A stretch of DNA of 64,000 nucleotides from Micromonosporaceae bacterium (GTDB taxonomy: Bacteria > Actinomycetota > Actinomycetes > Mycobacteriales > Micromonosporaceae), in the NCBI GenBank assembly GCA_035296325.1, contig DATHBD010000082.1, forward strand, positions 137,771-201,770. The letters are read 5' to 3'. A model generated the notes under the pieces. The model did not search any database and was not told where the DNA came from. It saw nothing but the letters and a program-made list of their open reading frames with translations. Positions 9,949 to 36,000 of this stretch are shown one piece after another. How positions within the stretch are numbered: the stretch's first letter is position 1; each line of letters starts with the position of its first letter. The translations under genes and the position numbers were made by a program.

Positions 9949-10054
9949 CGCGCAGTGGACCAAACCCGGCGATCCGGGACACATTACCCGCAGACGAGAA
10001 CGTCCCGCGTCCGGCTCCCGAGGGAGCCCGACGCGGGACGCGCGTTCTATCAGC

Positions 10055-11635
10055 CTAGTAGTCGACCTTGCCCTGAGCGTAATCTGCGAAGTTCATGACG
10101 GTGAACTCGTTTCTGCCCGTCATCGGCGTGAAGCCCGACTTCGCGTTGAGGTACGAGTCCTTGTCACCGTTCAGGATGCACATGATCACCTCGCCCACGA
10201 TCGTGCTGCCCAACTTACCGAGCGTCTGACCGCCATTCGCAGGGTCGAGCATCGGCTCCGCGAGGACGTAGAACCATAGCGGCAACTCCGCGCGCCACTC
10301 GGGTTTACGGAGCACCTTGGCCAAGTCGGTCTGTCCGGCGTTCTCGACACTCACGGCGAATTCTTCGTTGGTGTGCACCTTCAAGCCGGGTACCTCGCCG
10401 AGCATCTCCCGGGCAACCGCCTGTCCGGACGGCAGGTTCAATTGCCGGCCGCGCCTCAGGTTGCGCTGGGCCAGGGAGACCACTCCATCGTTGACAACCG
10501 TGGGAGGCAGGGTGAACAGCGGAGTCGCCAGCCGGGGATCGATCACGCGAGCCATGTTCCGCTGCTTTTTCGGATCGGAACTGAAGAAGCGTTCCCACTC
10601 GATCACCTTGTTGGCCGGCAGCCGCTGAGACCCGTGGAGGTCGGGGAAGGTGAGAACCGCCCCCGATGCGCTGTTCAAGACGTACGCCCCGCGGACCATG
10701 CTGTGCCCGAACCGGAACGCAGCCCCCGAGTACTCGAGCGGAATCTCAGGCTTCTGTGGGCTCTTCGGATTGAAGAACTGGCCCTTTTTCTTGGGGTTCG
10801 CCTTGACCGTTTCGAATATGTCCCGGTCCAGGACCCGCTTGAGGAACTCGTTCACGATCATCCACTGGAAGTGCCACTGGGTGATGCGCTGGGCCTCCGC
10901 GAACGTCGAAGCCTTCTTGTCCTCCAGGAGCCGGTTGTGGAACTTGAGGAACAACAGGTGGAACTGCGTAATGATGAGGTTCTCGTCGTTGCGGGCATCC
11001 CCGCACAGTGCAGTCCAGTTTCCTTCGTCTCGCGGCAGGTCTTCGGCGTAGTAGTTGCCGAGCCTCAGCCGCTTACCGTCGCTCTCGTACAGGTGCGCCT
11101 GCGGGCTCTTCGGATCCGGACCCTTCCCGTACACCGACTGCAGATCGAACTTCGGGCTGTCGAAGTTCACGCCCTTTTCGTCGGTCGGCGACCCGGTCAG
11201 CGCCCTGCGGTCCAGCGTCATGTCGTGATCGACGAACTGACCGAAGAAGGTATAACCGGCCGTGACCGTCTTGTTGTCCAGCGTCGACGAAGGCGGTCGT
11301 GTCTCGGTCATCCACTTGGCGAGGTCGCTCAGCAGACTCTCGTCCGGGGTGAAGCCCTTCAGCTTCTTGAACATGTAGCCGAAGCGGCCCTCCGCGGCGC
11401 CCGGCGCGGCAGCCGCGTCCTCGCCCCGCGGCTTCATGCCGTGCTTGGTGAGCATCGTCGCCGCCTGCGCGGCACGGGTACCGCTGATCGCTCCGCCCGA
11501 GGTCGCCGCGACGATACCGCCCGCGGCGACGGCTCCCGCCGCGGTTCCGATGACAGCGCGACGGGTCCAGCCGGGCGTGCCGGGTGCCGGCTCGGCACCA
11601 GCGTGGTCGGGGGCAAGGCTGCCTTCGTTACTCAC
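10055..11635 (-). CDS. Secreted animal-type haem peroxidase (An_peroxidase / peroxidase_3 family), Tat signal
   Basis: 'FFGQFVDHDMT' is the distal-His motif of animal haem peroxidases. 'TRRAVIGTAAGAVAAGG' is a twin-arginine signal. GTG start at 11635 preceded by 'agggaga'. GC content is visibly lower than the flanks, and a 414-bp AT-richer region lies upstream. Confidence 0.75.
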   Translation of the reverse strand: MSNEGSLAPDHAGAEPAPGTPGWTRRAVIGTAAGAVAAGGIVAATSGGAISGTRAAQAATMLTKHGMKPRGEDAAAAPGAAEGRFGYMFKKLKGFTPDESLLSDLAKWMTETRPPSSTLDNKTVTAGYTFFGQFVDHDMTLDRRALTGSPTDEKGVNFDSPKFDLQSVYGKGPDPKSPQAHLYESDGKRLRLGNYYAEDLPRDEGNWTALCGDARNDENLIITQFHLLFLKFHNRLLEDKKASTFAEAQRITQWHFQWMIVNEFLKRVLDRDIFETVKANPKKKGQFFNPKSPQKPEIPLEYSGAAFRFGHSMVRGAYVLNSASGAVLTFPDLHGSQRLPANKVIEWERFFSSDPKKQRNMARVIDPRLATPLFTLPPTVVNDGVVSLAQRNLRRGRQLNLPSGQAVAREMLGEVPGLKVHTNEEFAVSVENAGQTDLAKVLRKPEWRAELPLWFYVLAEPMLDPANGGQTLGKLGSTIVGEVIMCILNGDKDSYLNAKSGFTPMTGRNEFTVMNFADYAQGKVDY

Positions 11636-12048
11636 GTAATTTCTCCCTGCGGCGTCGTCGAGTTGCGCGGGGGCGCCATGCTCTCGTGCGCGAAGTGTGC
11701 GACCGTACAAACAGACCTGTGTCTATCACGTTCGCGGGACGTGCGCTACAGCAGAGAGGCACCTCGCGGGAACCGTATTTCCCCGGTTTCGGATCCTGCA
11801 CACTCAGTCATGGTTCTCGATACATCGACCGGGTGCGAATGTCGAGTGAATGGATGCGGGCGGACCGTTTGCCCAGCTCACGGACCTAGCAGAAGCACCC
11901 GTGCCGGGGCATCTATACGCCAATGTCCGCTCGATGCGCGATGCCCGCTAACCCAATCCCCGCTCCCCCGTTCGGCCGATCGATAACGACGAACGGCTGA
12001 TCGCTGCGCATGCGTAATCGCGAAAAATCTTCAACGAATCCAGCCCGG

Positions 12049-15256: not shown

Positions 15257-17332
15257 ATGACGCGTCCAGGCTCCGGTATGCCCCGCCGCAGGGTGTTCAC
15301 CATCGCCGCCGCCACCGGGCTGGGCCTCACGGCCCTCCCCCTGACCCGGGGTCTGATCACGCCCGCGTCGGCCGCGCCGGTCGGCGCCTGGGGCGATCAG
15401 GGCGACGGCACCTACGTCAACCAGATCGTCCCGGCCGACCTGAGCGACCTCGACGCGATCCGGGTGGGCAACGACTACTACGCGATCAGCAGCACCATGC
15501 AGTTCTCCCCCGGCATGGCCGTGCTGCACTCCACCGACCTGGTGAACTGGTCGATCATCAGCCACGCCGCCGGGGATCTGCTGCAGATGGGTCCGGAGTA
15601 CAACTGGGACCGGATGAACCGGCAGGGCAAAGGGGTCTGGGCCGGGGCGATCCGCCACCACGCCGGCCGGTTCTGGGTCTACTACAACACGCCGGACGAG
15701 GGCTTCTTCGTCACCTCGGCGGTCAACCCGGCCGGGCCGTGGGAGCCTCTGACGTCGATGTGGCGCACCACCGGCTGGAACGACGTCTGCCCGTTCTGGG
15801 ACGACAACGGCCAGGGCTACCTCGCCACCACCAACTACGCCGACGCGTACAAGATCTATCTGATTCCGCTCGGCCCGGACAACAGGTCGCTGGTGACCGG
15901 CTCACGCCGATTGATCCACCAGTCCAGCGGCAGCGAGGCCAGCAAACTCTACAAGATCAACGGACGGTACTACCACCTCTACAGCGAGACCCGGGGCGGC
16001 GCCCGGGTGGTCATGATGAACCGGTCCACCAGCCTCTTCGGGCCGTACGAGAACCGGCAGATCCAGCGCGGCAGTGCCAGTGTCGATCGGGAGCCGAACC
16101 AGGGTGGCCTCATCCAGGCGCCGTCCGGATCGTGGTACTGGCTCACCCACCACGGCAGCGGCGGGCACTGGGAGGGCCGGTCGATGAGCCTCGTGCCGGT
16201 GACGTGGGTCGACAACTGGCCGATCCTCGGCGCCGTCGGTTCGGACGGCGTCGGCACGATGGTGTGGGGCGGCCGGGTCCCGGCAGGCGGCGTGCCGGGC
16301 GCTCCGCTGCCGGCGATCTCCGGCGTGATCACCAACGACGACTTCAGCCGCACCACGCTGCGGCCGCAGTGGGAGTGGAACTACCAGCCCCGCGCCGACC
16401 GGTGGTCGCTCACCGAGCGGCCCGGGTACCTGCGGCTGCGCGCATTCGCGCCGCTGCGCCCGCACACCCTCAACCGGGTCGGCAACGTGCTGAGCCAGCG
16501 GTCGTTCAAGTCGATCAGCAACACCGCGACCGTACGGCTGGAACTGGCCGGCATGATCGACGGCCAGCACGCCGGGCTCTGCCACTTCTCCAACGTCTAC
16601 GCCGGCCTCGGCGTCTCCCGCGCCGGGACCACCAACCGGCTGACCCACAACGTCAACGGCGTGCTGTCCTACGGGCCCAACATCGCCGGCACGGCGATCT
16701 GGCTGCGCTCCACCTGGGACCTTGCCGGGGTGAGCCGGTTCTCGTACAGCACCGACGGCGTCACCTACACCGCGTTCGGCGGCACGTACCAACTCGCCTG
16801 GGGCAGCTACCGGGGCGACCACGTGGGCGTCTACACCTACAACGCGGGCGCCGCCGGCGGGTACGTCGACGTCGACACGTTCGAGTACACGACCGCGCCG
16901 GCCCGGGCGTACACCATCACCAACGCCGGCAGCGGCAAGGTCGTCGACGTCTTCGGCGGGTCGTCCACCACCGGCGCAGCGATCATCCAGTGGCTGCGCA
17001 CCGGCGGCACCAACCAGCAGTGGCGGTTCCACCCGACCGGCGACGGCTACTACACCATCACCAGCATGCGCAGCGGCAAGCTGCTCGACGTCACCGGCGG
17101 CGCCACCGCCGCCGATACCCCGGTCGTGCAGTGGCCGGGCGTGAGCGGCAACGGCAGCCGCAACCAGCACTGGCAGCTCAGGCCGGTCACCGGCGGTTTC
17201 GCCATCGTCAATCGGCAGAGTGGCCTGCTGCTCGACGTCGCCGCCGGGTCAACGGCCGACGGGGCCGCCCTGGTGCAGACCGCCGACCGCGGCGCAGCCA
17301 GCCAACGGTGGAGTTTCACCCTGGTCGGCTGA
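15257..17332 (+). CDS. Secreted GH43 beta-xylosidase/alpha-L-arabinofuranosidase with GH43 C-terminal beta-sandwich domain and ricin-B lectin domain
   Basis: 'aaggag' RBS. Tat signal 'MTRPGSGMPRRRVFTIAAATGLGLTA'. GH43 core 'VGNDYYAISSTMQFSPGMAVLHSTDLVNWS...VWAGAIRHHAGRFWVYY'. C-terminal 'QQWRF...QHWQL...QRWSF' are ricin-B QxW repeats. Confidence 0.8.
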   Translation: MTRPGSGMPRRRVFTIAAATGLGLTALPLTRGLITPASAAPVGAWGDQGDGTYVNQIVPADLSDLDAIRVGNDYYAISSTMQFSPGMAVLHSTDLVNWSIISHAAGDLLQMGPEYNWDRMNRQGKGVWAGAIRHHAGRFWVYYNTPDEGFFVTSAVNPAGPWEPLTSMWRTTGWNDVCPFWDDNGQGYLATTNYADAYKIYLIPLGPDNRSLVTGSRRLIHQSSGSEASKLYKINGRYYHLYSETRGGARVVMMNRSTSLFGPYENRQIQRGSASVDREPNQGGLIQAPSGSWYWLTHHGSGGHWEGRSMSLVPVTWVDNWPILGAVGSDGVGTMVWGGRVPAGGVPGAPLPAISGVITNDDFSRTTLRPQWEWNYQPRADRWSLTERPGYLRLRAFAPLRPHTLNRVGNVLSQRSFKSISNTATVRLELAGMIDGQHAGLCHFSNVYAGLGVSRAGTTNRLTHNVNGVLSYGPNIAGTAIWLRSTWDLAGVSRFSYSTDGVTYTAFGGTYQLAWGSYRGDHVGVYTYNAGAAGGYVDVDTFEYTTAPARAYTITNAGSGKVVDVFGGSSTTGAAIIQWLRTGGTNQQWRFHPTGDGYYTITSMRSGKLLDVTGGATAADTPVVQWPGVSGNGSRNQHWQLRPVTGGFAIVNRQSGLLLDVAAGSTADGAALVQTADRGAASQRWSFTLVG

Positions 17333-17342
17333 GCCGGCGGCG

Positions 17343-17395
17343 CCGACCATGGCTTGGCGGTGCACCAGCGCGGTAGTGCCATCCGACGCTTGGCG
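17343..17395 (+). promoter_or_regulatory. 17-bp perfect direct repeat (cttggcggtgcaccagc x2, 36 bp apart) about 85-135 bp upstream of the TIR gene start
   Basis: Two identical copies at 17343-17359 and 17379-17395 in the 146-bp intergenic region between the GH43 stop and the TIR-WD40 start. Confidence 0.4.
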
Positions 17396-17478
17396 GTGCA
17401 CCAGCTCGCTTCTCCTTTGAGCTGGCACGGTGGAGAATCGTTCGGCGCGCCGATGTATCGACTGCGGGGGACGTTGTC

Positions 17479-20400
17479 ATGGGTTTCGATGGGTTCATTT
17501 CGTACAGTCATGCTGCGGATGGGCAGTTGGCACCGGCGGTGCAGCGGGGTCTGCATCGGTTGGCGAAGCCGTGGCATCGTCGTCGGGCGTTGTGGATCTT
17601 CCGGGACCAAACCGGCCTGGCGGTGACGCCGGCGTTGTGGACGTCGATCCAGCAGGCTTTGGACGGTTCGAAGTATTTCGTGCTGATGGCGTCGCCGGAG
17701 GCGGCGCGTTCGCCGTGGGTGAACCGCGAGATCGAGCACTGGGTGGCGACGAAGTCGGCGGACAAGATTCTGCCGGTGGTGACCGACGGGGAGTGGCGCT
17801 GGGACGCGGCGGCGAAGGACTTCGACCCGTCGTCGACGGCGGTGCCGGCGGCGTTGCGGGGGGTGTTCGGTGAGGAGCCGCTGTATTTGGATTTGCGGTG
17901 GGCTCGAAATGACGTGCAGTTGAGTTTGCGGCATTCCCGGTTTCGGGATGCGATCGCACAGTTGGCGGCGCCGATGCATGGGTTGAGTAAGGACGAGCTG
18001 GAGGGGGAGGACGTTCGGCAGCATCGTCGGGTGCGGCGGGTGTGGTCGGTGGGTGTGGCGTCGTTGGTGGTGTTGGCGTTGGTGGCGTCGTTGACCGGCG
18101 TGTTGGCGGTGCGTAACGCGGGTCGGGCGAACACGTCGGCGGCCGAGGCGCAGCGGCAGGAGCGGGCGGCGGCGGAGCAGCGGGGCAGCGCTGAGCGCTT
18201 TGCTGAGAAGGCCCGTGAGCAGGAGGAGGTAGCCAAGCGGGAGGAGGCTCGGGCGAAGGCGGCGGGGGATGAGGCGCGGCGGCAGGAGCAGCTCGCGGCG
18301 CAGCAGAAGGGGTTGGCTGGGCAGGCGGCTGCGGAGGCCGGGCGGCAGCAGGAGAACGCGCGTCGGCAGCAGGGGTTGGGGGATGCGGCGGCGGCGCGGG
18401 CGCGGGAGCAGGAACGTGCCGCGCAGCAGCAGCGTGAGGTCGCACGGGGTGCGGTCGCGGAGACGGCTCGGCAGAAGGAGATCGCACAGCAGCAACAGCG
18501 CCTGGCTGAGCAGGCGGCAGCGGTGACGCGGGAGCAGGAGCAGATCGCCCGGGACATGCAGCGCCTGGCCGAGGAAGCGACCAAGAAGGCCCAGCAACAG
18601 GAACAGATCGCGAAGGACATGCAGCAGCTGGCGAAGGACGCCGAAGCTGAGATGCTCAAGCAGAAGGCCAACGCCGAGGAGCAGCAGCGGATCGCGATCA
18701 GCCGACGATTGACCACCCAGGCCAAAGCAACGATGGGACGCGACCCGAAGACGGCCCTGATGCTCGGGGCGGCCGCCCAGAAGGTTCAGCCCGACGCCGA
18801 GACCCGCCGCGATATTACCGGCCTGATTAGGGGGACGCATCACGCAGGGATCATCCCCGACGTGACCGGCGTCGCGTACGGCTCGAACGGTGTCCTCGCC
18901 ACCATGAGCGAGGACGGGCAGGTGTCCCTGTGGAACGCGACCGACCCGGCGAAGCCCGACCTGCTCGCCAAGCCCGAGAACAAAGGTTCACCGGCCGTCG
19001 CGTACGCGCTCAGCGCGGACGGGCGGACACTTGTCACTTCCCATCAGGACGGCAGGGTCGTCGTCTGGAGCCTCGCCAACCCAACCCGTCCGGATGAGAC
19101 CGCCACGCTCCCCCGCGACGACGCCCTCACCACCGTCTCGATGGCACTCAGCGTGGACGCACGCACCCTCGCCATGTATGACCATGACGCCACGGCCGAA
19201 GACCGGCTTTTTTCCAGCTGGAGCGAGAGCCTGTGGGACCTGACCGACAGGTCCGGGCCGAAACGTCTTTTCCAACGGGCTGACAGCACCAACTCTAGGC
19301 ACGAGCCGGCCAGCTTCCTGTTCAGTCACGACGGGCGCACGATGGCTACCACGTCTAATGCCGAGGGAGACGGCTCCCTCTCCGATGTAACTGATCCGGC
19401 GCATCCGGTTCAGCTCGACTGGTTTGGCAAGATCGATCCGGCACAGTCACCGCTGACGTTTAGCCCGGTGGCAGACATTCTGGTAGTAGCAGACATTGGA
19501 ACGATGACCCTCTGGGATCTGGCTCCGGACAGTCGGGGCTGGCTCTCCGAGCTGAAGGGCCACGTGGTTTCAGCAGCGTTCAGTCCCGACGGCCGTACCC
19601 TCGCCGCCGCTGACGCCGATGGTAAGACAACCCTGTGGAATGTGTCCGATCCGGAGTACCCGGTCCGCCTCGCCGATGTGACAGGTCATGGCTCGGTTAC
19701 GTCGATGGCATGGAGCCCGGACGGCACGACGTTGGTCACCACAGGCGGCTTCGCGACCGCCCGGCTGTGGAGGGTCAAGCCATACGGCGCTCCCGAGCCG
19801 TTCCGCGAGCTAATCGAAGAACACGCATCGGTGGTGACGACGGCGTTCAGCCAGGACGGACACACCATGGCGACCACCGGCGCTGACGGAACGATCTTCT
19901 GGGATATGACCAATCCGGCGCATCCTGTTCGGCGTGACCACACCCCGTCGCTCGACGGCGGTTCCTTCGCACGGACTGCGTTCAGCCGAGACCTGCGCAC
20001 GGCAGCCTCCGCCGGGGGGGACGAAGTGACGGTGACGGACGTGACGCACCCGACCCGGCCTCGAACACTGTTCCACGAGGACCTCAAACCGGAGGACCTC
20101 ACCTGGGGAGTCACCGGCCTGGTTCTCAGCCCGGACGCACGCACCCTCGCGATAGGCGCTGACCGGAACAGGGTGATGATCTGGGCTATGACCGACCAGG
20201 GCCGATTCACTCGGTTAGGCACGGTCCCGTACAAGGGGAAATCGATCGCGCTCAGCCCCGACGGCCGCACCCTTGCCGTCGACGACACCGCCAAGACGGT
20301 GGCGCTGTGGGACCTGACCAGTCGCCCTGCGCCGGTCAAGGTCGGTAAGGTGGCCGGCGATGTGGACCTCGTCGGCCCGGTCGCCTTCAGCCCGGACGGA

Positions 20401-20919
20401 GGAACCCTGGCAACCGGGCACTCGGACCGGACAGCGATGCTGTGGGACGTCACCGACCGAGCCGCTCCCCACCAGCTCGCCATCCTGACCGGCAGCGGCG
20501 CCCCACGCAACTACTGGCAACAACACGGGCCCCGGCGCGAGGAAGTGTCGACGTTGGCGCTCAGCGCCGACGGAGCCACCCTGGTGGCCGTCTCGGGCGA
20601 TGACGCAGAAGCGGTGCTGTGGGACATCGCCGTCCGGACCAACCCTATCCAACTGGCCACCTTTGCATTTCAACAGGAGAACTGGATGAGGAACCCCTAT
20701 TACTCGGCGGCCTTGAGCCCCGACGGACGCACCCTGGCAATCAGCGGTGAGAGCGACCGCGGCGACGGGCTTACTTCACTTTGGGACTACACGAAGCTGA
20801 ACGATCTCCGCGCCGACCCTGCCAAGCAGGCCTGTGCCATCACCGGTCGTGGCCTCACCGCCGAGGAGTGGGCCAGTTACATTCCCGACTTCCCGTACCA
20901 ACCGACCTGTGCCGCCTGA
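17479..20919 (+). CDS. TIR-domain / transmembrane / coiled-coil / WD40 beta-propeller protein (1146 aa)
   Basis: N-terminal 'GFDGFISYSHAADGQLA...YFVLMASPEAARSPWVNREIEHW' matches the TIR betaA (xFISY) and SxW..E catalytic-Glu motifs. 'VWSVGVASLVVLALVASLTGVLAV' is a single TM helix. About 230 aa are Q/E/R/A-rich coiled coil. From about residue 440 onward there are at least 14 WD40-like repeats (WD/WN/LWD dipeptides recurring every 40-50 aa), consistent with two propellers. The TIR part uses TTG/GTG/CGT-rich codons and the propeller part has lower GC3 than neighbouring genes. Confidence 0.8.
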   Translation: MGFDGFISYSHAADGQLAPAVQRGLHRLAKPWHRRRALWIFRDQTGLAVTPALWTSIQQALDGSKYFVLMASPEAARSPWVNREIEHWVATKSADKILPVVTDGEWRWDAAAKDFDPSSTAVPAALRGVFGEEPLYLDLRWARNDVQLSLRHSRFRDAIAQLAAPMHGLSKDELEGEDVRQHRRVRRVWSVGVASLVVLALVASLTGVLAVRNAGRANTSAAEAQRQERAAAEQRGSAERFAEKAREQEEVAKREEARAKAAGDEARRQEQLAAQQKGLAGQAAAEAGRQQENARRQQGLGDAAAARAREQERAAQQQREVARGAVAETARQKEIAQQQQRLAEQAAAVTREQEQIARDMQRLAEEATKKAQQQEQIAKDMQQLAKDAEAEMLKQKANAEEQQRIAISRRLTTQAKATMGRDPKTALMLGAAAQKVQPDAETRRDITGLIRGTHHAGIIPDVTGVAYGSNGVLATMSEDGQVSLWNATDPAKPDLLAKPENKGSPAVAYALSADGRTLVTSHQDGRVVVWSLANPTRPDETATLPRDDALTTVSMALSVDARTLAMYDHDATAEDRLFSSWSESLWDLTDRSGPKRLFQRADSTNSRHEPASFLFSHDGRTMATTSNAEGDGSLSDVTDPAHPVQLDWFGKIDPAQSPLTFSPVADILVVADIGTMTLWDLAPDSRGWLSELKGHVVSAAFSPDGRTLAAADADGKTTLWNVSDPEYPVRLADVTGHGSVTSMAWSPDGTTLVTTGGFATARLWRVKPYGAPEPFRELIEEHASVVTTAFSQDGHTMATTGADGTIFWDMTNPAHPVRRDHTPSLDGGSFARTAFSRDLRTAASAGGDEVTVTDVTHPTRPRTLFHEDLKPEDLTWGVTGLVLSPDARTLAIGADRNRVMIWAMTDQGRFTRLGTVPYKGKSIALSPDGRTLAVDDTAKTVALWDLTSRPAPVKVGKVAGDVDLVGPVAFSPDGGTLATGHSDRTAMLWDVTDRAAPHQLAILTGSGAPRNYWQQHGPRREEVSTLALSADGATLVAVSGDDAEAVLWDIAVRTNPIQLATFAFQQENWMRNPYYSAALSPDGRTLAISGESDRGDGLTSLWDYTKLNDLRADPAKQACAITGRGLTAEEWASYIPDFPYQPTCAA

Positions 20920-20998
20920 CGGATCGGCAAACCGGACGCGACAGCGTGCCAGTAGGCCTGACGTGCGCCATCAAGGCGCAGCACACTAGCGTGAGCCC

Positions 20999-21523
20999 AT
21001 GGCGCATGCTGGCGATGGCGAACGGGTGGCCGCGGCACTCGTGGACCGGTTGGCCGGCCTGACCTTCGTGGACAAGACCGCCGACGAGGTGACCGCGCTG
21101 CTCATCGACGCGGCGGCGGCCTGGGCCGCCGAGCAGGGCTGGCGGGTGTACCGGCGGGCGGCCAGCGTGCTCCCCCTGCCACCGCCGTACGCGCACCAGC
21201 GCTCCACCGTGGACCTCGCGTGCGCCCGCCCGCACGGGGCGCCCATCGTGATCGAGTTCGACCGCACCAACCGGCAGCGGTCCATCGACAAGCTCCTCGC
21301 CGAGGCGGCGGCCGGGCGCGTCGCGATCTGGGTGCGGTGGAACAGCCGTCGGATCGAGCCGGCGCCCCCGCCCATCTGGCTGGTGCCGTGCGAGGTCATC
21401 GCGCGTTCCGGCGCCGGGGACCGCGGGCGGTTGTTCTCCCGGTTGCCGGCGCCGGACCGCCCGGCGCCGATGCACACTGTGCTCGAGGGTGCCGTCGACC
21501 AGCAACCCGACCTGTTCAGCTGA
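20999..21523 (+). CDS. Hypothetical protein (174 aa), possible nuclease-like fold
   Basis: ORF immediately downstream of the TIR gene and overlapping by about 35 nt the start region of the aldehyde dehydrogenase. 'VDLACARPHGAPIVIEFDRTNRQRSIDKLL' loosely resembles a PD-(D/E)xK-like core. No confident domain call. Confidence 0.35.
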   Translation: MAHAGDGERVAAALVDRLAGLTFVDKTADEVTALLIDAAAAWAAEQGWRVYRRAASVLPLPPPYAHQRSTVDLACARPHGAPIVIEFDRTNRQRSIDKLLAEAAAGRVAIWVRWNSRRIEPAPPPIWLVPCEVIARSGAGDRGRLFSRLPAPDRPAPMHTVLEGAVDQQPDLFS

Positions 21524-28053: not shown

Positions 28054-30069
28054 CTACCTGAGCGGCCCGCCGGGGCGCTGGGAGACTACGGCGGCGCCGT
28101 CAAGCTCCGGGACGGCCGCGCCGTCGACGCTGAACCGGCCCTGGAGCATCATCGCCCGCAGCTGGCTGACGGGGACCGGGCGGGCATAGTGGAAGCCCTG
28201 CGCGATGTCGCATCCCATCAGCTTGAGCGCCGCACTGTGCTCGGCGCGCTCCACTCCCTCGGCCACGACGGTCAGCCCGAGGTTGTGGCCGAGATCGATA
28301 GCGCCGCGAACCAGGATGGCATCGTTCTCGTCCTCCGTCATGCCCAGCACGAAGGAACGATCGATCTTGAGCTCGTCCACCGGGAGCCGCTTGAGGTACG
28401 CCATCGAGGAGTAGCCGGTGCCGTAGTCATCGACGGAGAGCCGGATGCCCAGCCGGTGCAACTCGGTCAGGATCGTCATGGCGAGCCCGGTGTTGGCCAT
28501 GATCGCGGTTTCCGTCACCTCCAGCCGCAGCAGTGCCGCCGGCACCCCGTACTCCTCGAGCAACCCGTGAACGCGTTCCGGCAGCGTGGTGTCGAGCAGG
28601 CACCGCGGCGACAGGTTGACCGCCACCTGCACCTCCACGCCGTCGTCCAGCCACGCCCGCACGTCGACCAGCGCGATCCTCAGTACATGGGTGGTTAGGC
28701 GGTTGATCAGGCCGGTGCCCTCCGCGACGGGGATGAACTCGCCCGGCGGCACGAGCCCGCGGGTGGGGTGCTGCCAGCGCACCAGCGCCTCCATGCCGGA
28801 CAGCTCGCCCAGCTCGAGGCTCACCTTCGGCTGGTAGTACACGACCAGCTCGTCCTCGCGATCGAGCGCCCGGCGCAGGTCGCCGAGCAGCGCTAGCCGG
28901 GTCGGGCTCTCCACGTGCAACGCCGGGTCGTAGACGACGATGCCGGTCCTGCCGTCCTTGGCGCGGTACATCGCCACGTCGGCGTAGCGCATCAGCTCGT
29001 CGACGGTGCCGCCGTGCGCGGACGTGACGACCACGCCGATGCTGGCCTCCACGTCGACCGTCAGGGCGTCGTCCATGACGAACGTCTGGTGCAGGGCGTG
29101 CAGCACCCGCTCGGCAAGTTCGCCGGCGCTGTCGGCGTCGGTCCGGGGAAGCAGCACGGCGAACTCGTCTCCGCCGAGGCGGGCCACCGTGTCGGCCGCC
29201 CGCACCGCCTGCCCCACCCGGTTCGCCACCTGGCACAGCAGCTGGTCGCCGTAGTGGTGTCCGAGCGCGTCGTTGACCTCCTTGAACCGGTCCAGGTCGA
29301 ACACCATGACAGCAACCGCCTCGCCCGTGCGGGCGGCGCCGGACAGGGCCTGTCCCAGCCGGTCCGCGAACACGGTGCGGTTGGGCAGGCCGGTGAGCCG
29401 GTCGTGCAGCGCCTGGTACTCGCTCTTGCGCGACTGCCGTACCAGCTCACGCTGGTAGCCGAGGATGACCAGGCCGAACGCCGCGAGCATGCAGAGCCCG
29501 ACGGCGAAGCCGGCCAGGGTGGCGACGTACACCAGTCGCTCGACCCGTTCCAGTTCGCGCACCGCCCGTGCGGCCGCCACGATGTGGACGTCGGCCGCCG
29601 CCTGCACGTCGCCGCTGATCCGATCGAACGCCGGGTCGGTCTCGGTATTGTCGATCTCCAACTCGAGCGCGGCGTCACCCGCGTCGACCGCCCGGAACAA
29701 CCGCTGCACGGACTGGTAGTACTCGGTGTGCCGCGCCTCCAGGCGCGCCACACCGGCCCGTTCCTCGGCACTTCCCCATTGCCGCACGTCGTCCAGGGCG
29801 AGGGCCAGATCCAGGCTCGCCTGCTTGTGCCGCGCCTCGACCTCCGGGCCTGGTTCCAGCCGGTACTTGCGCTCCAGCGACTCCTCCGCCGCGACCGCCT
29901 CCTTGGCCCGCACGTACGCACCGGCCAGGGTGGTGGACTTGGTCACCGCCGCGGCGGACCGTCGGGTGCTGGTGACTCCGACGAGGCTCAGCGCGGTCAG
30001 GGCGAGCAGGGTGACCGCAAGCCCGGCCGCTGCGGCCCGGCCGGCACCGCTCGGCTTAGCCATCACCAT
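28054..30069 (-). CDS. Membrane sensor GGDEF-EAL protein (diguanylate cyclase/phosphodiesterase) with periplasmic helical sensor domain
   Basis: TM, then about 170-aa extracytoplasmic helical region, then TM. Then 'LTGLPNRTVFADRL...RLGGDEFAVLL' (GGDEF) and 'ELSGMEALVRWQHP...EVTET...DDYGTGYSS...LKIDRSF' (EAL motifs). Start at the ATG at 30069 ('MVMAKPSG'); the longer upstream extension is rejected. Confidence 0.85.
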   Translation of the reverse strand: MVMAKPSGAGRAAAAGLAVTLLALTALSLVGVTSTRRSAAAVTKSTTLAGAYVRAKEAVAAEESLERKYRLEPGPEVEARHKQASLDLALALDDVRQWGSAEERAGVARLEARHTEYYQSVQRLFRAVDAGDAALELEIDNTETDPAFDRISGDVQAAADVHIVAAARAVRELERVERLVYVATLAGFAVGLCMLAAFGLVILGYQRELVRQSRKSEYQALHDRLTGLPNRTVFADRLGQALSGAARTGEAVAVMVFDLDRFKEVNDALGHHYGDQLLCQVANRVGQAVRAADTVARLGGDEFAVLLPRTDADSAGELAERVLHALHQTFVMDDALTVDVEASIGVVVTSAHGGTVDELMRYADVAMYRAKDGRTGIVVYDPALHVESPTRLALLGDLRRALDREDELVVYYQPKVSLELGELSGMEALVRWQHPTRGLVPPGEFIPVAEGTGLINRLTTHVLRIALVDVRAWLDDGVEVQVAVNLSPRCLLDTTLPERVHGLLEEYGVPAALLRLEVTETAIMANTGLAMTILTELHRLGIRLSVDDYGTGYSSMAYLKRLPVDELKIDRSFVLGMTEDENDAILVRGAIDLGHNLGLTVVAEGVERAEHSAALKLMGCDIAQGFHYARPVPVSQLRAMMLQGRFSVDGAAVPELDGAAVVSQRPGGPLR

Positions 30070-30303
30070 GTCACTCCGTCGGTCCGCGCCAAGGGCATCG
30101 CAGGTGCCCGTTGACCATGGATCGGCCGCCAGCGGGCCAGGATGAGCACATTCGGCCGCCCGTTGCGCGCGGCTGTCAACATGGCGTCGTGACATCCGAA
30201 CCGGTCCCCGCGCGTACCGCAATGTCGATATGCTGCCGGCTCGGCGCGTCCGCCCGGGCTTCGGGGCGCCGCTGGCAGCGGCGTTGAGGGGACTGACAGG
30301 CGA

Positions 30304-30996
30304 ATGAGTGCGTTCGTTGCCGCGGCCCTCGGCGTTCCCACCGTCTTCCTGACGTTCCTGCTTATCGTCGTCATCGGCTACTGGCTGGTGGTCCTGCTGG
30401 GCGCCGGCGAGATCGACGCGCTCGACGGCGCGGAGGGCGAGATCGGCGAAGCCGGCCACGGCACGAACGGCGGCCTGTCCGGCGGCCTGTCCGGCGCCCT
30501 GGCAACGGTGGGGCTCGGCGGGGTGCCGGTGACCGTGGTGCTCTCGTTGCTGATCGCCGTCGCCTGGTTCGTCAGCCTGATCGGGACGGTGCTGCTCGGG
30601 CACCTGACCCTGTCGACGCCGCTGCTGGCCGCCGCCGGCCTGGCGGTGCTCATCGCCGCCGGGCTCGTGGCCGTCTTCACGGTGCGCCTGCTCGTTCTGC
30701 CGATCCGGCGGATGTTCTCGGGCGGTGCCGCGCCGTCCCGCGCCGACTTCGTCGGCCGGCCCTGCGTGATCCGCACCGGCCGGGTCGGGGCCGACTTCGG
30801 GCAGGCAGAGGTGACCGCGGGTGACGGGTCCTCCGCGGTCGTCCAGGTCCGCCAGACCGGCAACGAAGCCCTAACCGCGGGCAGCGTGGCCCTCATCTAC
30901 GACTACGACCCGGATGGTGAGTTCTTCTGGGTGCTGCCCCGCAGCGCCGCCACGGGTCCCGAACTCCCCGGCACCGAACCCCAAAGGAACTCCTGA
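30304..30996 (+). CDS. NfeD-like membrane protein (YuaF-type short NfeD with C-terminal OB-fold)
   Basis: 3-4 TM helices, then 'GRPCVIRTGRVGADFGQAEVTAGDGSSAVVQVRQTGNEALTAGSVALIYDYD', a beta-rich OB-fold typical of NfeD. Its stop overlaps the flotillin ATG (TGATG). A 17-nt perfect palindrome (cgccgctggcagcggcg, 30267-30283) lies 20 bp upstream. Confidence 0.6.
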   Translation: MSAFVAAALGVPTVFLTFLLIVVIGYWLVVLLGAGEIDALDGAEGEIGEAGHGTNGGLSGGLSGALATVGLGGVPVTVVLSLLIAVAWFVSLIGTVLLGHLTLSTPLLAAAGLAVLIAAGLVAVFTVRLLVLPIRRMFSGGAAPSRADFVGRPCVIRTGRVGADFGQAEVTAGDGSSAVVQVRQTGNEALTAGSVALIYDYDPDGEFFWVLPRSAATGPELPGTEPQRNS

Positions 30997-33005
30997 TGGA
31001 TGTGCTCAACATCGGCTTCGGCGTACTGCTCGGCGTCGTGCTCCTCGTCCTCATCGCCCTCGCCTTCCTCGTCGCCCGACTGTTCCGCAAGATCGAGCAG
31101 GGCAAGGCCCTGATCGTCTCCAAGGTGCGCCGGGTCGATGTCACGTTCACCGGCGCCATCGTCCTGCCGGTGCTGCACAAGGCCGAGGTCATGGACATCT
31201 CGGTGAAGACCATCGAGATCGAGCGCAGCGGCAACGAAGGGCTGATCTGCCGGGACAACATCAGGGCCGACATCCGGATCACGTTCTTCGTCCGGGTCAA
31301 CAAGACCGTGGAGGACGTCATCAAGGTCGCCCAGGCCATCGGCACCGCCCGGGCCAGCGACGAGACCACGTTGCAGGAGTTGTTCAGCGCGAAGTTCTCG
31401 GAAGCCCTGAAGACGGTCGGCAAGCAGCTCGACTTCGTGGATCTCTACACCCAACGCGACGAGTTCCGCGATCAGATCCTGCGGGTCATCGGCACCGACC
31501 TCAACGGCTACAGCCTCGAGGACGCGGCCATCGACTACCTCGAGCAGACCCCGATGCACCGGCTCGACCCGGCCAACATCCTCGACGCCCAGGGCATCCG
31601 CAAGATCACTGAGTTGACCGCAATCGAGCATGTCCGGACCAACGAGTTCCAGCGCAACGAGGAAAAGGAGATCACCCGCCAGAACGTCGACGCGCGGGAG
31701 GCCATCCTCGAGTTGCAGCGCCGGCAGACCGACGCCGAGACCAAGCAGAACCGCGAGATCGAAACCATGCGGGCACGGGAGCAGGCCGAGATCTCCAGGG
31801 TCCAGGCGGAGGAGCGGCTCAAGGCCCAGACGGCCCATATCCGCACCGACGAGCAGCTCGGCATCCAGAACGAGAACCAGGCCCGGGAGATCGCCGTCGC
31901 GCAGAAAAACCGGGAACGCGTCATCGCCATCGAGACCGAGCGGATCGAGAAGGACCGCCAGCTCGAGATCATCGCCCGGGAACGCGAGACGGCGTTGTCC
32001 ACCATCTCGAAGAACAAGGAGGTGGAGACGGAGAAGCGGGCGATCGCCGAGGTGATCCGGGAACGGATCGCGGTGGACAAGACCGTGGCCGAGCAGGAGG
32101 AGAACATCAAGCGGCTGCGCGTCGTCGAGGAGGCGGAGCGCACCCGCCAGGCCGTGATCATCGCGGCGGAGGCCGAGGCGCAGGAGGGCCTGGTCAAGGA
32201 CATCAAGGCGGCCGAGGCCTCCGAGTTGGCCGCGCGGCACAAGGCCCGGGAGGACCTGGTCCTGGCGGAGGCACGCCAACAGGCCGCCGAACTGGACACC
32301 CGGGCGAAGATCCGCCTCGCCGAGGGACACCAGGCGGAGGCCGCCGCCGCCGGGCTCGCCGAGGTGCAGGTCCGCGAGCGCGACGCCGCGGCCACCGAGA
32401 AGGTCGGTCGCGCCGAGGCGGTGGTGGCGCGCGAGATGGCGCTGGTGGCCGCGGACGCGGTGCGGGACAAGCTCAAGGGCGAGGCCGAGGGCCTCACCGA
32501 CAAGGCAGCCGCGATGGCCGCCCTGGACTCCGCGAGTCGCGAGCACGAGGAGTACCGCCTGCGGCTGGAAGCGGAGAAGGAGATCCGGCTGGCCAGCATC
32601 GACGTGCAGCGGCAGATCGCCGACGCGCAGGCCTCCGTGGTCGCCGCGGGTCTGGAGAAGGCGAACATCGACATCGTGGGCGGCGACAGCGTCTTCTTCG
32701 ACCGGTTGATGAGCTCCATCACCATGGGCAAGAGCGTCGACGGGTTCGTCGAGCACTCCGATGTCGCGAAGGCGCTCGGCGGCCCGTGGTTGGACGGCTC
32801 GGGGAACTTCGGGCAGGACCTGACCCGGCTGCTCGGCTCGCTCAACAGCAACGACATCAAGAACCTGACCCTCGCAACGCTCCTCGGCCAACTGATCAAG
32901 GCCGGCGGGTCGGACGCCGGCAAGCTCCGTGAGCTGTTGAGTACCGCGCATCGGCTCGGCGTTGCGGAGGCGCCCGTCGCCGCGCTCGCCACGTCGAGGC
33001 AGTGA
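30996..33005 (+). CDS. Flotillin-family SPFH/band-7 protein (FloT/YqiK-like)
   Basis: N-terminal TM 'IGFGVLLGVVLLVLIALAFLVA'. SPFH domain 'KALIVSKVRRVDVTF...DISVKTIEIERSGNEGLICRDNIRADIRITFFVRV'. Then a long E/A/R-rich coiled-coil 'flotillin' region. 669 aa. Confidence 0.85.
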   Translation: MDVLNIGFGVLLGVVLLVLIALAFLVARLFRKIEQGKALIVSKVRRVDVTFTGAIVLPVLHKAEVMDISVKTIEIERSGNEGLICRDNIRADIRITFFVRVNKTVEDVIKVAQAIGTARASDETTLQELFSAKFSEALKTVGKQLDFVDLYTQRDEFRDQILRVIGTDLNGYSLEDAAIDYLEQTPMHRLDPANILDAQGIRKITELTAIEHVRTNEFQRNEEKEITRQNVDAREAILELQRRQTDAETKQNREIETMRAREQAEISRVQAEERLKAQTAHIRTDEQLGIQNENQAREIAVAQKNRERVIAIETERIEKDRQLEIIARERETALSTISKNKEVETEKRAIAEVIRERIAVDKTVAEQEENIKRLRVVEEAERTRQAVIIAAEAEAQEGLVKDIKAAEASELAARHKAREDLVLAEARQQAAELDTRAKIRLAEGHQAEAAAAGLAEVQVRERDAAATEKVGRAEAVVAREMALVAADAVRDKLKGEAEGLTDKAAAMAALDSASREHEEYRLRLEAEKEIRLASIDVQRQIADAQASVVAAGLEKANIDIVGGDSVFFDRLMSSITMGKSVDGFVEHSDVAKALGGPWLDGSGNFGQDLTRLLGSLNSNDIKNLTLATLLGQLIKAGGSDAGKLRELLSTAHRLGVAEAPVAALATSRQ

Positions 33006-36000
33006 GCGGGCAGGTGGCCGACCCCGCCGCTCCCGGTGCCGCTCCCGCCGCTCCCGGGGCCGACAGGGGGACCGTTCCCGGCGCGACGGCGGCCCCGCGC
33101 GACGCTGACCGGAACGGCGCCGAGCCGTCCGTCGGCACCGGACTGGACGCGGGCACCTACGAGGTGCTCCGGGGGCGCCTGCGCACCCAGGTTGCCGAGC
33201 TCGGCCGGCGGGCGGAGGCGCTCAACGCCCGCCGCCTGACGACGTTCGGCAGCACCGAACTGAGCCTGCTCGGCACGGAGCGGATCCGCACCGAGCACAA
33301 CTGCGTGCCCCGCGACATCGTCTCGGTGGGCGGGCGGATGCTGTTCGGGTACAACGTCTTCATCGGCCTCAAGGCCGAGACGTCGGTCGACGATGTGTTC
33401 TCGCTGCACCACTTCGCCCGGGCGGAAGGGGCCGGCGCGGAGGCCGGCGCGGGCACCGCGGCCGGCAAGGCGGCATTCCGGTTCGAGGACGCGGCCGCCG
33501 ACGAACTGCCCGGCCTGCTGCGCGCCGCCCAGTTCCAGCGCGACTTCGCCGAACTGTACCGCTACTACCGGGAGACCCGGCTGGTCCAGCTCCGACGCCT
33601 CGACGGTCGGCTGCTGGCCATCTTCCAGACGAGTCCCCGCATCGACGACATCCGGGTACTGCGGTGGCGGGTCGACACCTCGGGCGCGGTCAGCTATCTG
33701 GACAACCGGGGCGAGCGCGACCACACGTTCCCGCCGTCACACGACTTCGAGTGGCTCGAAACCACGCGGGACAACCACGTGCTGGGGCGACACCCACACA
33801 TCTCAATCGATGACGAGGTCTTCGTCGAGACGGTCGGCGGCAACCTCACCGTGAAGGTGGAGAACAACACCGAGTCCGGGGAGGGCGTCTACAGCGAGCC
33901 GGTCGAGGAGCCGCTGCAGAGCCTCGCCGACGCCGACGTGTCGTACGCCAGGGTGGGGCCGCTGATCCTGCTCCGGATCCGGCCGTACAAGGAGACCCAG
34001 TGGCGGCACCTGGTCTTCAACACCCGGACCCGGGCGGTGGTGCGACTCGACAGCATCGGGCAGGCATGCCAGCGCCTGCCCGAGGATCACGGGATCATCT
34101 TCCCCGGCGGGTACTACCTGTCCACCGGCGCGACGAAGACGTTCGAGACGGACGTGGCGAGCCTGGAGTTCGAGCGGATGATCCGCTCCGCGAACGGCGA
34201 GGACGTGCTCTACGTCTTCCACGCCCGGGCCGAGGGCCGCAGCCTGCTGCTGTCGTACAACGTGATCCGCAAGGAGATCGCCAACCCGATCCCGTGCCAC
34301 GGCTACTCGCTCTTCGACGACGGCACGCTTGTCGTCTTCCGGGCCACCTCCGAGGAGCCGACCCGGGTGCACCCGATGCAGGTCTGGCAGACGCCGTACC
34401 AGTCCGACACCTACGCGGCGGCGCAGCCGGTGGGCACCGGGCCGCTGGAGCGCATCGGCAACGCCGAGCTGGTCCGTGGCATCTCCGACTGCCTTTCGCT
34501 GGGGCGCATGGTCGAGGAGATGGCCCCCTCCGTGGCGGTCTTCGAGGCGCTCATCGCGACCTGTGCCAAGATTTTCGACCACTACCACTGGCTTGGTGAA
34601 TCCGAGCTCGGTGATCTCCGTGCGCCGTTGGCGGACGTGCGGGCCACCGCGGAACAGGTCCTCGACGAGTACGAGACGGTGCAGACCCTGACCGCCCGCG
34701 CCGCCGCTGACCTCGCCACCGCCGCAGCCGAGATCACGTCGATGATGCGGCTGGCCCGGGCCGAGGCGCCGCGCACCGCCGACGCCTGGGTCACCCAACT
34801 CGCCGAGCTGCGACGCGCCCAGGGCCGGCTGATCACCCTGCGGGAGCTGCGTTACGTCGACGTCGCCGAGATCGACCGGCTGGCCGGCGATCTCGCCGCC
34901 GAACTGACCGCGGCAGCGCAGCGCGCGGTCGAGTTCCTGCAGGGCGACGACGCATTTGCCGGCTACCACGCGCAGGTCGATGGGTTGATCGCCGACGCCG
35001 AGGCGATCGCCACCGTCGCGGACGCGACTCCGGTCACCGAACGGCTCACCGCGCAGGCCGAAGGCCTGGAGATTGTGACCGAGGTGGTCGGGTCCCTGGA
35101 CGTCGCCGCGGCCACGGTCCGGACCGCCATCCTGGCCCGGATCGGTGAGGTGCTCGCCGGCGTCAACCGGGCCCGGGCGACCCTGGACGCCCGCCGCCGG
35201 GAGTTGCGCTCGGCTGAGGGCCGCGCCGAGTTCGCCGCCGAATTCGCCCTGCTCAGCCAGGCGGTCACCGGCGCGTTGGCGACTGCCGACACGCCGCAGC
35301 GCTGTGACGAGCAAGTGGGTCGGCTCCTTCTGCAGCTGGAGAACATGGAGTCGCGCTTCGCCGACCTGGACGACTTCGGCGCGCAGTTGGCCGACAAGCG
35401 CGAAGACGTGTACGAGGCCTTCGCGTCGCGCCGGCAGGCCCTCGTCGACGAGCGGGCCCGGCAGGCCGGCCGGCTCAGCGACTCGGCGGAGCGGATCCTG
35501 CGCAGCGTGCAGCGCCGGGTCGCCGGCCTGCGCTCGCTGGACGAGGTGAACACGTACTTCACCTCCGATCCGATGATCACCAAGCTGCGCGCGGTGGGCG
35601 AACAGCTGCGCGCCCTCGGCGACGCTGTCCGGGCCGAGGAACTCGAGGGCCGGGTCAAGGCCGCCCGCCAGGAGGCCGGCCGGGCGCTGCGCGACCAACT
35701 GGACCTCTACAGCGACGGCGGCGAGACGATCCGACTGGGGCGGCACCGGTTCGCGGTCAACACCCAGTCCATCGACCTCACCCTGGTGCCGCAGGACGGC
35801 CGGATGAGCCTGGCCATCACCGGGACGGACTACCGCGCCCCCGTGCACGACCAGGCGTTCCAGGCCACCCAGCCGTACTGGGAGCAGTTGCTGGTCTCCG
35901 AGTCACCGCAGGTGTACCGGGCGGAGTACCTGGCCACCGCCATCCTCGCCGACGCCGAGCTGGGCGGCGGTGGGCTCAGCGTGGACGCGCTGTACCGGGC

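Follow-up and report, generated by a model that had tools for sequence, protein, structure and literature searches.

The locus described here raised the question of whether a bacterial TIR domain could be governed by a sensor lying on the other side of the membrane. The bacterial TIR immune proteins known to us (those of Thoeris, TIR-STING, SPARTA and TIR-NLR/AVAST) sense intracellular events. The gene in question lies in a stretch of 64,000 nucleotides of a Micromonosporaceae bacterium (assembly GCA_035296325.1, contig DATHBD010000082.1, positions 137,771 to 201,770), referred to below as the window, where it occupies the open reading frame (ORF) 17479-20919 of the forward strand. This frame starts with ATG, codes for 1146 amino acids (aa) and is the longest one there, with no in-frame start further upstream; more than 100 homologues align with its product from residue 1. 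A Shine-Dalgarno-like GGGGGA (17466-17471, forward strand) stands 7 nt 5' of the ATG, and the family consensus keeps CgcgGGGg. The identical protein, with identical neighbours, was also present on two soil-metagenome contigs of 353 and 199 kb.

The architecture of this ORF taken by itself, namely a TIR domain, a transmembrane helix, a stalk and a double propeller, can be given with high confidence. A preliminary description, made from the sequence, had proposed the order TIR, transmembrane helix, coiled coil and two seven-bladed WD40 propellers, and Pfam, AlphaFold2 and Foldseek agreed on it. All of the parts are encoded on the forward strand. The TIR domain (aa 1-170; 17479-17988) was delimited by Pfam TIR_2, by the AlphaFold2 model with Foldseek and by an alignment with AbTir. 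It is followed by a juxtamembrane helix (aa 171-190; 17989-18048) with the motif KDELEGEDVRQHRRxRR, nearly invariant in the family, and by a single transmembrane helix (aa 191-212; 18049-18114) located by a hydropathy scan. A helical stalk rich in Ala, Gln, Glu and Arg (aa 214-418; 18118-18732) was recognized from the AlphaFold2 helices, its composition and its heptad periodicity, and leads through a short helical linker (aa 419-454; 18733-18840), with AlphaFold2 helices at 423-436 and 440-452 (predicted local distance difference test score, pLDDT, above 90) and the conserved motif DDPxTALMLGxAAQ, to fourteen WD40 blades (aa 455-1103; 18841-20787) supported by Pfam, AlphaFold2, Foldseek and repeat motifs. 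A C-terminal helical cap containing C1119 and C1144, together with the stop codon, ends the gene (aa 1104-1146; 20788-20919). No P-loop or NTPase family was matched by the protein in Pfam, and the segment between TIR and WD40 consists of the transmembrane helix and the stalk. Hence, the protein differs from the TIR-STAND and NLR-like proteins (TIR-NB-ARC/NACHT-WD40/TPR), which have a central STAND NTPase.

The identity of the first domain was established by several lines of evidence. The Pfam profile TIR_2 (PF13676) covered aa 6-106 (E = 3.9e-8), its score of 34.2 bits exceeding the gathering score of 28, and the betaA strand of the domain reads FISYSH (aa 6-11). With 81 sequences as input, AlphaFold2 modelled aa 1-185 at a pLDDT of 83, and the best Foldseek matches of this model were the TIR domains of L6 of flax, EcThsB, the TIR-APAZ protein of SPARTA, BtpA, AbTir and RUN1, with probabilities of 0.99-1.0 and template modelling scores (TM-scores) of about 0.4-0.5. 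In a search of PDB sequences, ASPEAARSPWVNREIEHWVA (SPWVNREIEHW) was paired with LSTDFIKKDWTNYELDGLVA of AbTir (KDWTNYELDGL), an alignment that agrees with the TIR_2 hidden Markov model and with the predicted fold. W80 (17716-17718) and E84 (17728-17730) stand in it at the positions of a tryptophan and the catalytic glutamate of AbTir, which we take to be numbered W204 and E208. In NADase TIR domains the catalytic glutamate is found at the start of helix alphaC (E208 in AbTir, E642 in SARM1). E84 was invariant in alignments of 59 and 81 sequences, and W80 invariant or nearly so. The TIR assignment and the presence of a catalytic-type glutamate were therefore confirmed, the profile match being above the gathering score; the glutamate formerly given as that of "REIEHW" is of the catalytic type and, since W80 and E84 align with W204 and E208, it is E84 and not E86. 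As judged from the sequence, the TIR domain is a probable NAD-cleaving enzyme. An Actinoplanes TIR named ApTir has been listed as an NADase (PMC8494770).

The second point considered was on which side of the membrane the propellers lie. One hydrophobic segment dominates the protein (best 19-residue window, aa 193-211, with a mean Kyte-Doolittle value of 2.56), and DVRQHRRVRRV stands directly N-terminal to it. A helix of this kind was found in all 121 family sequences, at aa 173-240 and with a minimum hydropathy of 1.81. Within 15 residues of it, these sequences carry on average 5.3 Lys and Arg on the N-terminal side vs 2.5 on the C-terminal side. The corresponding values for the wider superfamily were 5.0 and 3.25, with an N-terminal excess in 78 of 101 cluster representatives, and the juxtamembrane motif, which bears the positive-inside charge, is kept there as well. 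Paired cysteines are reportedly a signature of exported, disulfide-bonded domains in Actinobacteria. The only cysteines of the window protein are C1119 and C1144, both located in the cap and both invariant. Among 84 independent clusters at 50% identity, 75 had an even number of cysteines (2, 4, 6, 8 or 10) C-terminal to the helix, as did 40 of the 49 clusters with cysteines beyond the cap pair (p = 9e-6), while the TIR side of the 84 clusters had 0-3 cysteines with no parity. This parity supports, independently of the charge bias, a predicted topology with the N-terminus inside and the C-terminus outside.

The same evidence bears on an alternative that we consider very improbable, in which the protein would be a membrane-tethered intracellular sensor with a cytoplasmic stalk and propellers, either with its N-terminus outside or with a helix that does not span the bilayer. 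The strong charge of the stalk (38 Lys and Arg, 34 Asp and Glu) would suit such an arrangement, as would the general view that the G-beta-type WD40 domains of bacterial STAND and NLR-like proteins are cytoplasmic (PMC7159879, PMC8195603). However, one 22-residue helix puts its two sides in different compartments, and the export of a folded N-terminal domain of 190 aa that ends in five Arg and has no signal peptide is implausible; the TIR domain, moreover, needs cytoplasmic NAD+, the charge bias favors an inner N-terminus, and even cysteine counts are confined to the C-terminal side. On the grounds of charge bias, cysteine parity, implausible export and the need for NAD+, the N-in/C-out topology with the propellers outside is probably the best reading. 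The positive-inside argument of the preliminary description, drawn from a single sequence, was thus reinforced across the family.

The part predicted to lie outside begins with the stalk, composed of two AlphaFold2 helices (aa 214-337 and 346-418; about 205 aa). It contains 26% Ala, 18% Gln, 14% Glu and 13% Arg, shows a periodicity of 3.5/7.0 when Ala is counted as hydrophobic, and is probably a coiled coil. The long stalk is a variable feature of the superfamily, since it has a median length of 189 aa among the Actinoplanes-type proteins, whereas 62 of the 101 representatives of the wider superfamily have one of less than 30 aa. Over aa ~430-1100, matches were obtained with Pfam WD40 (PF00400, E = 1.7e-35) and many propeller models. 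Thirteen repeats of the SxDG type plus the first blade add up to fourteen blades (aa ~455-1103, ~650 aa), with a predicted boundary between the two seven-bladed propellers near aa 780 (around nt 19820). The full-length AlphaFold2 model, built on 59 family sequences, has beta-strands over aa 455-1103, mostly with a pLDDT above 90, arranged as two seven-bladed propellers and followed by the helical cap; in Foldseek it resembled the tandem 7+7 propeller proteins 2ymu, Aip1 (1nr0), Utp21 and Apaf-1. The stalk, a probable coiled coil, and the propellers were therefore present as described before, although shorter than the 230 and 700 aa then estimated. Concerted WD40 repeats of the fungal style were considered and rejected, as Tandem Repeats Finder detected none of the length of a blade. 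In the cap, C1119 and C1144 stand within the motif ACAITGRGLTAEEWASYIPDFPYQPTC, and exactly two cysteines were counted in 53 of 59 family members. The C-terminal cap is kept in the wider superfamily and in one protein of the layout caspase, nSTAND1, transmembrane helix and WD40.

Further evidence came from the family to which the protein belongs. A full-length search gave more than 1200 matches, and the properties given here are those of the best 120, all of which are proteins of 1060-1290 aa with TIR_2 and WD40. Those with an organism name come from Actinoplanes, Paractinoplanes, Amorphoplanes and Spirilliplanes, and none exceeds 53% identity to the window protein in its best local alignment, the top full-length match reaching 51%. 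Scanning one genome per species yielded 246 confirmed loci, of which 80 were kept for the statements on copy number, taxa and layout. Single genomes carry 3-4 or more copies, several loci have tandem copies, and the taxa comprise Actinoplanes, Paractinoplanes, Spirilliplanes, Krasilnikovia and Pilimelia. The family is a lineage-specific expansion in Actinoplanes-like Micromonosporaceae. Its mean pairwise identity is 84% in the TIR domain, 80% in the juxtamembrane helix, 54% in the transmembrane helix, 50% in the stalk, 40% in the propellers and 58% in the cap. Hence, this is a family with a constant TIR domain, the presumed effector, and variable propellers, the presumed sensor.

The source metagenomes themselves hold at least four copies, which are the window gene, P0002 (L087:1817-5239), a copy directly upstream of P0002, and P0121 (L084:6001-7101). 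P0002 is identical to the window copy at 89% of positions in the TIR domain, 100% in the transmembrane helix and 71% in the stalk, but at only 32-34% in the propellers. P0121, of 366 aa, consists of TIR, transmembrane helix and stalk without propellers, is 90% identical to the N-terminus of the window protein, and sits between ligA and phoD/gatCAB on a 397-kb contig of the same sample series. An exhaustive HMMER search with aa 1-215 recovered 3362 clusters at 50% identity (E <= 1e-30), mostly of 900-1200 aa; all nine of the wider clusters scanned for domains had TIR_2 and WD40 or propeller matches, and Pseudonocardia, Cryptosporangiaceae, Dormibacteraeota and Thermomicrobiales were among the names of related proteins. 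The architecture statistics were taken from this exhaustive representative search; a word-based search with the TIR domain alone returned only proteins below 380 aa, many of them truncated gene calls, and was excluded from them.

From these features we infer a topology, an NADase activity, an activation by clustering and a biological role that together would make the protein an outside-in receptor, with variable external propellers controlling the self-association of a cytoplasmic NADase-type TIR domain in a multi-copy, conflict-type family. We favor this reading with moderate confidence. The protein would be a single-pass receptor of type II (N-in, C-out), its TIR domain held in the cytoplasm by the Arg-rich juxtamembrane helix. 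On the outer side, the 205 helical residues of the stalk would span about 30 nm and bear the double WD40 propeller, which a disulfide-stapled cap would close. If characterized TIR NADases are a guide, binding of a ligand to the variable propellers may cluster or re-orient the stalks and bring the TIR domains together, and their self-association would build an active site around E84. Cleavage of NAD+ would then lead to its depletion or to a signal derived from ADP-ribose, upon which growth of the hyphal compartment would cease or the compartment would die. The family would act like conflict receptors, of immunity or of non-self recognition, each copy having its own conserved promoter/operator. 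An external sensor on a TIR NADase would amount to an outside-in immune or allorecognition receptor able to detect a threat before, or without, its entry into the cytoplasm, and such a receptor would be an independent bacterial invention of the logic of Toll-like receptors. The size of the family, with more than 3000 clusters and several copies per Actinoplanes genome, makes experiments tractable, as do the sharp contrast between its constant TIR domain and variable propellers and the predicted promoter/operator that its copies carry.

Several points weigh against this reading and were considered together. The TIR model is only moderately like solved TIR structures (TM-score ~0.5) and has an unusual insert at aa 102-150, and the alignment with AbTir, taken alone, is weak (E = 0.4). 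WD40 domains of the G-beta type are usually cytoplasmic in bacteria. PADLOC gave only sub-threshold ThsB-like matches for the protein (E = 0.003-0.02), the window copy sits among ordinary genes (GH43, a dehydrogenase, a CitMHS transporter), and the immediate neighbours at 71 family genes were not enriched in defence or mobile-element functions. Finally, no biochemical or genetic data for any family member were identified in the literature. The searchable literature likewise gave no description of the TIR-TM-WD40 architecture, where TM stands for the transmembrane helix, in agreement with the earlier statement that such proteins are functionally uncharacterised.

The neighbourhoods were analyzed further because the gene had been proposed as a candidate for defence. 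In the window, two GH43-ricin glycosidases precede it, and a 174-aa ORF, a succinate-semialdehyde dehydrogenase (SSADH), a CitMHS transporter and a CBS protein follow. According to Pfam, the leading families among 102 immediate neighbours of family genes were those of transporters, oxidoreductases and sigma factors and included neither integrases nor transposases; PADLOC found only generic cross-matches to ABC ATPases among these neighbours. The defence proposal thus received no support from the neighbourhood, the neighbours of the 71 family genes having ordinary metabolic and transport functions. A different association emerged. A STAND regulator of the SARP type (Trans_reg_C-BTAD-NB-ARC-TPR, ~1000 aa) was encoded at 35 of the 71 loci (L012, L020, L033, L041, L072 and L074 among them), no more than three genes away in 34, and in two recurring layouts. 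The median identity among these TIR-linked SARPs is ~76%, although the genes at the flanks otherwise vary, so that the association exceeds general synteny (p ~5e-16 against an assumed background of 10%). A conserved protein of ~157 aa is encoded between the SARP and TIR genes at 14 of the 71 loci; it had no matches in Pfam, NCBIfam, PADLOC or the PDB sequences, and may be SLOG/LOG-like.

These regulator genes, together with the ~157-aa protein, are an argument for a second reading, in which the protein would be a developmental or regulatory receptor, and not an immune or death effector, whose TIR domain serves as a protein-protein scaffold or makes a low-level nucleotide signal and in either case acts on a SARP-type regulator of differentiation or secondary metabolism. 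Housekeeping neighbours in place of defence islands, the extreme conservation of the TIR surface and a promoter/operator conserved across the family, which suggests one regulon, point the same way. However, the glutamate of the catalytic type and the tryptophan preceding it are invariant, as in NADase TIRs, and fast-evolving sensors in an expanded, multi-copy family are seen more typically in conflict systems. The window copy, moreover, has neither a cognate SARP nor the ~157-aa cassette. The only SARP of the window (51452-54697, reverse strand; 1081 aa, SARP-BTAD-NB-ARC-TPR) belongs to another subfamily and is 30-44% identical to the TIR-linked one, its best matches (40-44%) being copies located 2-3 genes from a TIR gene in L016, L023, L025, L026, L036 and L043. 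A regulatory role of this kind was thus considered unlikely.

The conserved upstream element, which enters both readings, was located at 17410-17454 of the forward strand; its promoter/operator-like function is predicted from its conservation upstream of family genes. It begins with a -35-like TTCTCC (17410-17415), a spacer of 17 nt, GTG and a -10-like GAGAAT (17433-17438). The hexamer is followed at 17439-17454 by the AATCGGTCGNCGCCGAT box, CGTTCGGCGCGCCGAT, in which lies the palindrome TCGGCGCGCCGA. In other genomes, NANAAT was found 33-44 nt 5' of the start in 80 of 87 family genes, and at 35-40 nt in 76. The upstream consensus of the family is cTTc.Cc-N17-GTGgAgAATCGGTCG.CGCcGAt, in which the -10-like hexamer is preceded by GTG and followed by the palindromic box AATCGGTCG.CGCCGAT. 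Among the three local paralogues (window copy, P0121 and P0002), the 80 nt 5' of the start are conserved, although a simple sigma-70 scan of the region gave no match. A shared promoter plus operator is probable for 17410-17454, which suggests coordinated control of the copies; as the element is conserved throughout the family, duplicated copies would bring their own predicted promoter/operator with them. Between the GH43 stop codon and this predicted promoter, two direct copies of a 36-nt unit also stand in tandem (17335-17406; 75% identity). Each copy holds the exact 18-mer GCTTGGCGGTGCACCAGC, with the palindrome GGTGCACC, which has no other occurrence in the window and is absent upstream of both paralogues.

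The combination of an Arg-rich segment, a transmembrane helix and WD40 blades was not restricted to TIR proteins, as it also occurred after other N-terminal domains in the fetched loci. A protein with caspase and nSTAND1 domains (L009:2324-6631) has a short coil rich in Ala, Gln, Glu and Arg and the Cys-capped tail in addition to the transmembrane helix and WD40; one with a helix-turn-helix and a P-loop NTPase (L068, ORF starting at 606) has the same short coil and a divergent tail; and a caspase protein (L088:15665-18346), encoded beside an EACC1 gene, has a transmembrane helix and WD40 but no Cys cap. These examples suggest that many STAND-WD40 and caspase-WD40 proteins of these bacteria may also span the membrane, and the shared juxtamembrane-TM-WD40 module, on sequence grounds, ties the family to the conflict systems described by Kaur et al. 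(2020; PMC7159879). In that work, the EACC1-caspase pair was presented as a membrane-associated conflict system, and one third or more of its caspase proteins were said to have transmembrane helices (PMC7159879); nSTAND1 was named later (Kaur et al., 2021; PMC8195603).

In a broader and more tentative reading, which may well not hold, filamentous actinomycetes would possess a class of true surface pattern-recognition receptors with a common external module and interchangeable cytoplasmic death effectors. The module would comprise an optional wall-spanning stalk, the double WD40 propeller and the disulfide cap, the effectors would be TIR, caspase or nSTAND1, and the outside signals could be particles, competitors or non-self hyphae. 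If so, bacteria would have their own counterpart of Toll-like receptor logic, and many STAND-WD40 and caspase-WD40 conflict proteins now taken for intracellular sensors would look outward. In any case, the shared TM-WD40 module prompts a second look at the related caspase-WD40 and STAND-WD40 proteins.

The proposed outside-in receptor was then compared with known systems. Like the family studied here, the conflict systems of Kaur and co-workers are multi-copy and have a lineage-specific distribution in filamentous actinomycetes. However, the EACC1-caspase system has an EACC1 gene at its 5' side and an N-terminal caspase, whereas the window protein has neither a caspase nor an NTPase domain and no EACC1 partner, the gene upstream being a GH43 gene, and its TIR effector is fused directly to the transmembrane helix, unlike the caspase and NTPase domains of those systems. 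Like conflict systems of multicellular bacteria, the protein couples a TIR effector to a repeat sensor; it stands out in that the membrane is predicted to separate the two, and in having no NTPase. AbTir, BtpA/TcpB, ThsB, the TIR-APAZ of SPARTA and plant L6 and RUN1 share the fold of the TIR domain, the W-x-x-x-E motif aligns with AbTir, and activation by self-association would be an expectation common to NADase TIRs and the window TIR. All of the systems just named are, however, soluble cytoplasmic proteins or complexes, while the window TIR is N-terminal to a transmembrane helix and carries the aa 102-150 insert and a conserved juxtamembrane helix. In Thoeris, ThsB is encoded beside ThsA (SIR2/SLOG or TM/Macro); the window has no ThsA-like neighbour, the ThsB models gave the sub-threshold E values mentioned above, and no ThsA, Argonaute or STING partner was found among the window neighbours.

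Outside the bacterial immune systems, Toll-like receptors are single-pass proteins with an outer repeat sensor and a cytoplasmic TIR domain, as proposed for the window protein. They differ in having a signal peptide, a leucine-rich repeat (LRR) ectodomain and a C-terminal TIR domain, whereas the window protein is predicted to be of type II and has no signal peptide, with an N-terminal TIR domain, WD40 on a stalk and no LRR match. Its TIR domain is of the enzymatic, Glu-containing bacterial type. The likeness is an analogy of layout and not homology of the whole protein. A type-II layout with a cytoplasmic N-terminal catalytic domain, a juxtamembrane segment, one transmembrane helix and an extracytoplasmic sensor is known from actinobacterial receptor Ser/Thr kinases such as PknD (kinase, transmembrane helix, extracellular NHL beta-propeller) and PknB (kinase, transmembrane helix, PASTA); the window protein has the TIR domain in place of the kinase, a stalk of 200 aa and a double WD40 propeller. 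In the fungal allorecognition proteins HET-E/D/R and nwd (PMC9153377), a TIR-like death effector is combined with variable WD40 repeats in multi-copy families of a filamentous host, as in the TIR family; these fungal proteins are cytoplasmic, with a NACHT NTPase and near-identical concerted repeats, in contrast to the blades found here, whose DNA is divergent and free of tandem repeats, and to the transmembrane helix.

The origin of the gene was the last question, as its atypical codon usage had previously been taken to indicate horizontal acquisition. The G+C content at third codon positions (GC3) is 0.807 for the whole gene, compared with 0.894 +/- 0.041 for 29 window genes (z = -2.1), and falls to a minimum of 0.69 over aa 601-750, in the propeller part. 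In the TIR part, TTG accounts for 67% of Leu, GTG for 92% of Val and CGT for 20% of Arg codons, and CTC, GTC, GCC and AGC are not used at all. Over the first ~340 codons (17479 to ~18500), third-position C (C3) is almost absent (C3 0.05-0.20, with G 0.6-0.8 and T 0.1-0.3 at this position), and the GC skew at 17500-18500 (+0.32) is the highest of the 64-kb window. To our knowledge, this C-poor pattern matches no genome-wide codon usage. In the same region of 77 family gene copies, C3 had a mean of 0.42 and a minimum of 0.31 outside the window copy, which is therefore an outlier. An explanation of the G-rich, C-poor composition of the 5' third by G-quadruplexes was rejected, as no canonical one was found in 17000-21000 on either strand, and low GC3 was rejected as a family trait since, on average, family genes match their flanks (0.911 vs 0.909 for the 77 copies).

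A recent foreign gene, retaining the codon bias of its donor, would account for the reduced GC3 and for the strong skew, and is compatible with the other readings. It would also fit the absence of synteny around SSADH in the closest relatives, one of which has the glycosidase and SSADH genes adjoining without a TIR gene; however, the surroundings of SSADH differed in each of the three relatives nearest to it (81-84% identity), which makes this test of island status uninformative. Furthermore, the close homologues all come from the same actinomycete family, the GC3 of the family copies equals that of their flanks, and the gene keeps the promoter conserved in the family. At least two other paralogues of the source metagenomes, P0002 and P0121, have this C-poor pattern over the same extent although they differ from the window copy at 40-47 synonymous sites per 212 codons; family members in other genomes lack it. 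A recent import was consequently considered distinctly unlikely. The unusual codon usage was thus upheld and the horizontal acquisition was not, as the family is endemic to the Actinoplanes clade. Since the pattern is shared with diverged paralogues and family GC3 equals that of the flanks, C3 avoidance, as read from these sequence comparisons, is a property internal to the lineage and attached to the constant N-terminal module, and not evidence of distant import. Either a bias that is maintained or selection could lie behind it; in the latter case, for example, a toxic effector might be translated in a de-optimised or tRNA-dependent manner.

Additionally, several features of the surrounding DNA were recorded. 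The 174-aa ORF directly downstream (20999-21523, forward strand) has a GC3 of 0.93, is annotated as a gene on the two metagenome contigs and overlaps the longest possible start of SSADH. It had no matches in Pfam, NCBIfam or PADLOC and is unrelated to the ~157-aa protein linked to SARPs; a V-D...I-E-F-D...K pattern, judged by eye only, hints at a PD-(D/E)xK nuclease. Further downstream, 30996-38167 of the forward strand encodes a 669-aa ORF and then a protein of 1721 aa with DUF3686 ("ATPase involved in DNA repair"), DUF7902 and a dynein-type AAA_5 domain, and this large ATPase operon is flanked by the genes of two GGDEF-EAL proteins (28054-30603 and 38258-40624). On the reverse strand, 10055-11710 encodes a homologue of animal haem peroxidases (PF03098, E = 1e-20), which adjoins methyltransferase genes and lies within the stretch of lowest GC content in the window (0.62 at 10001-11000).

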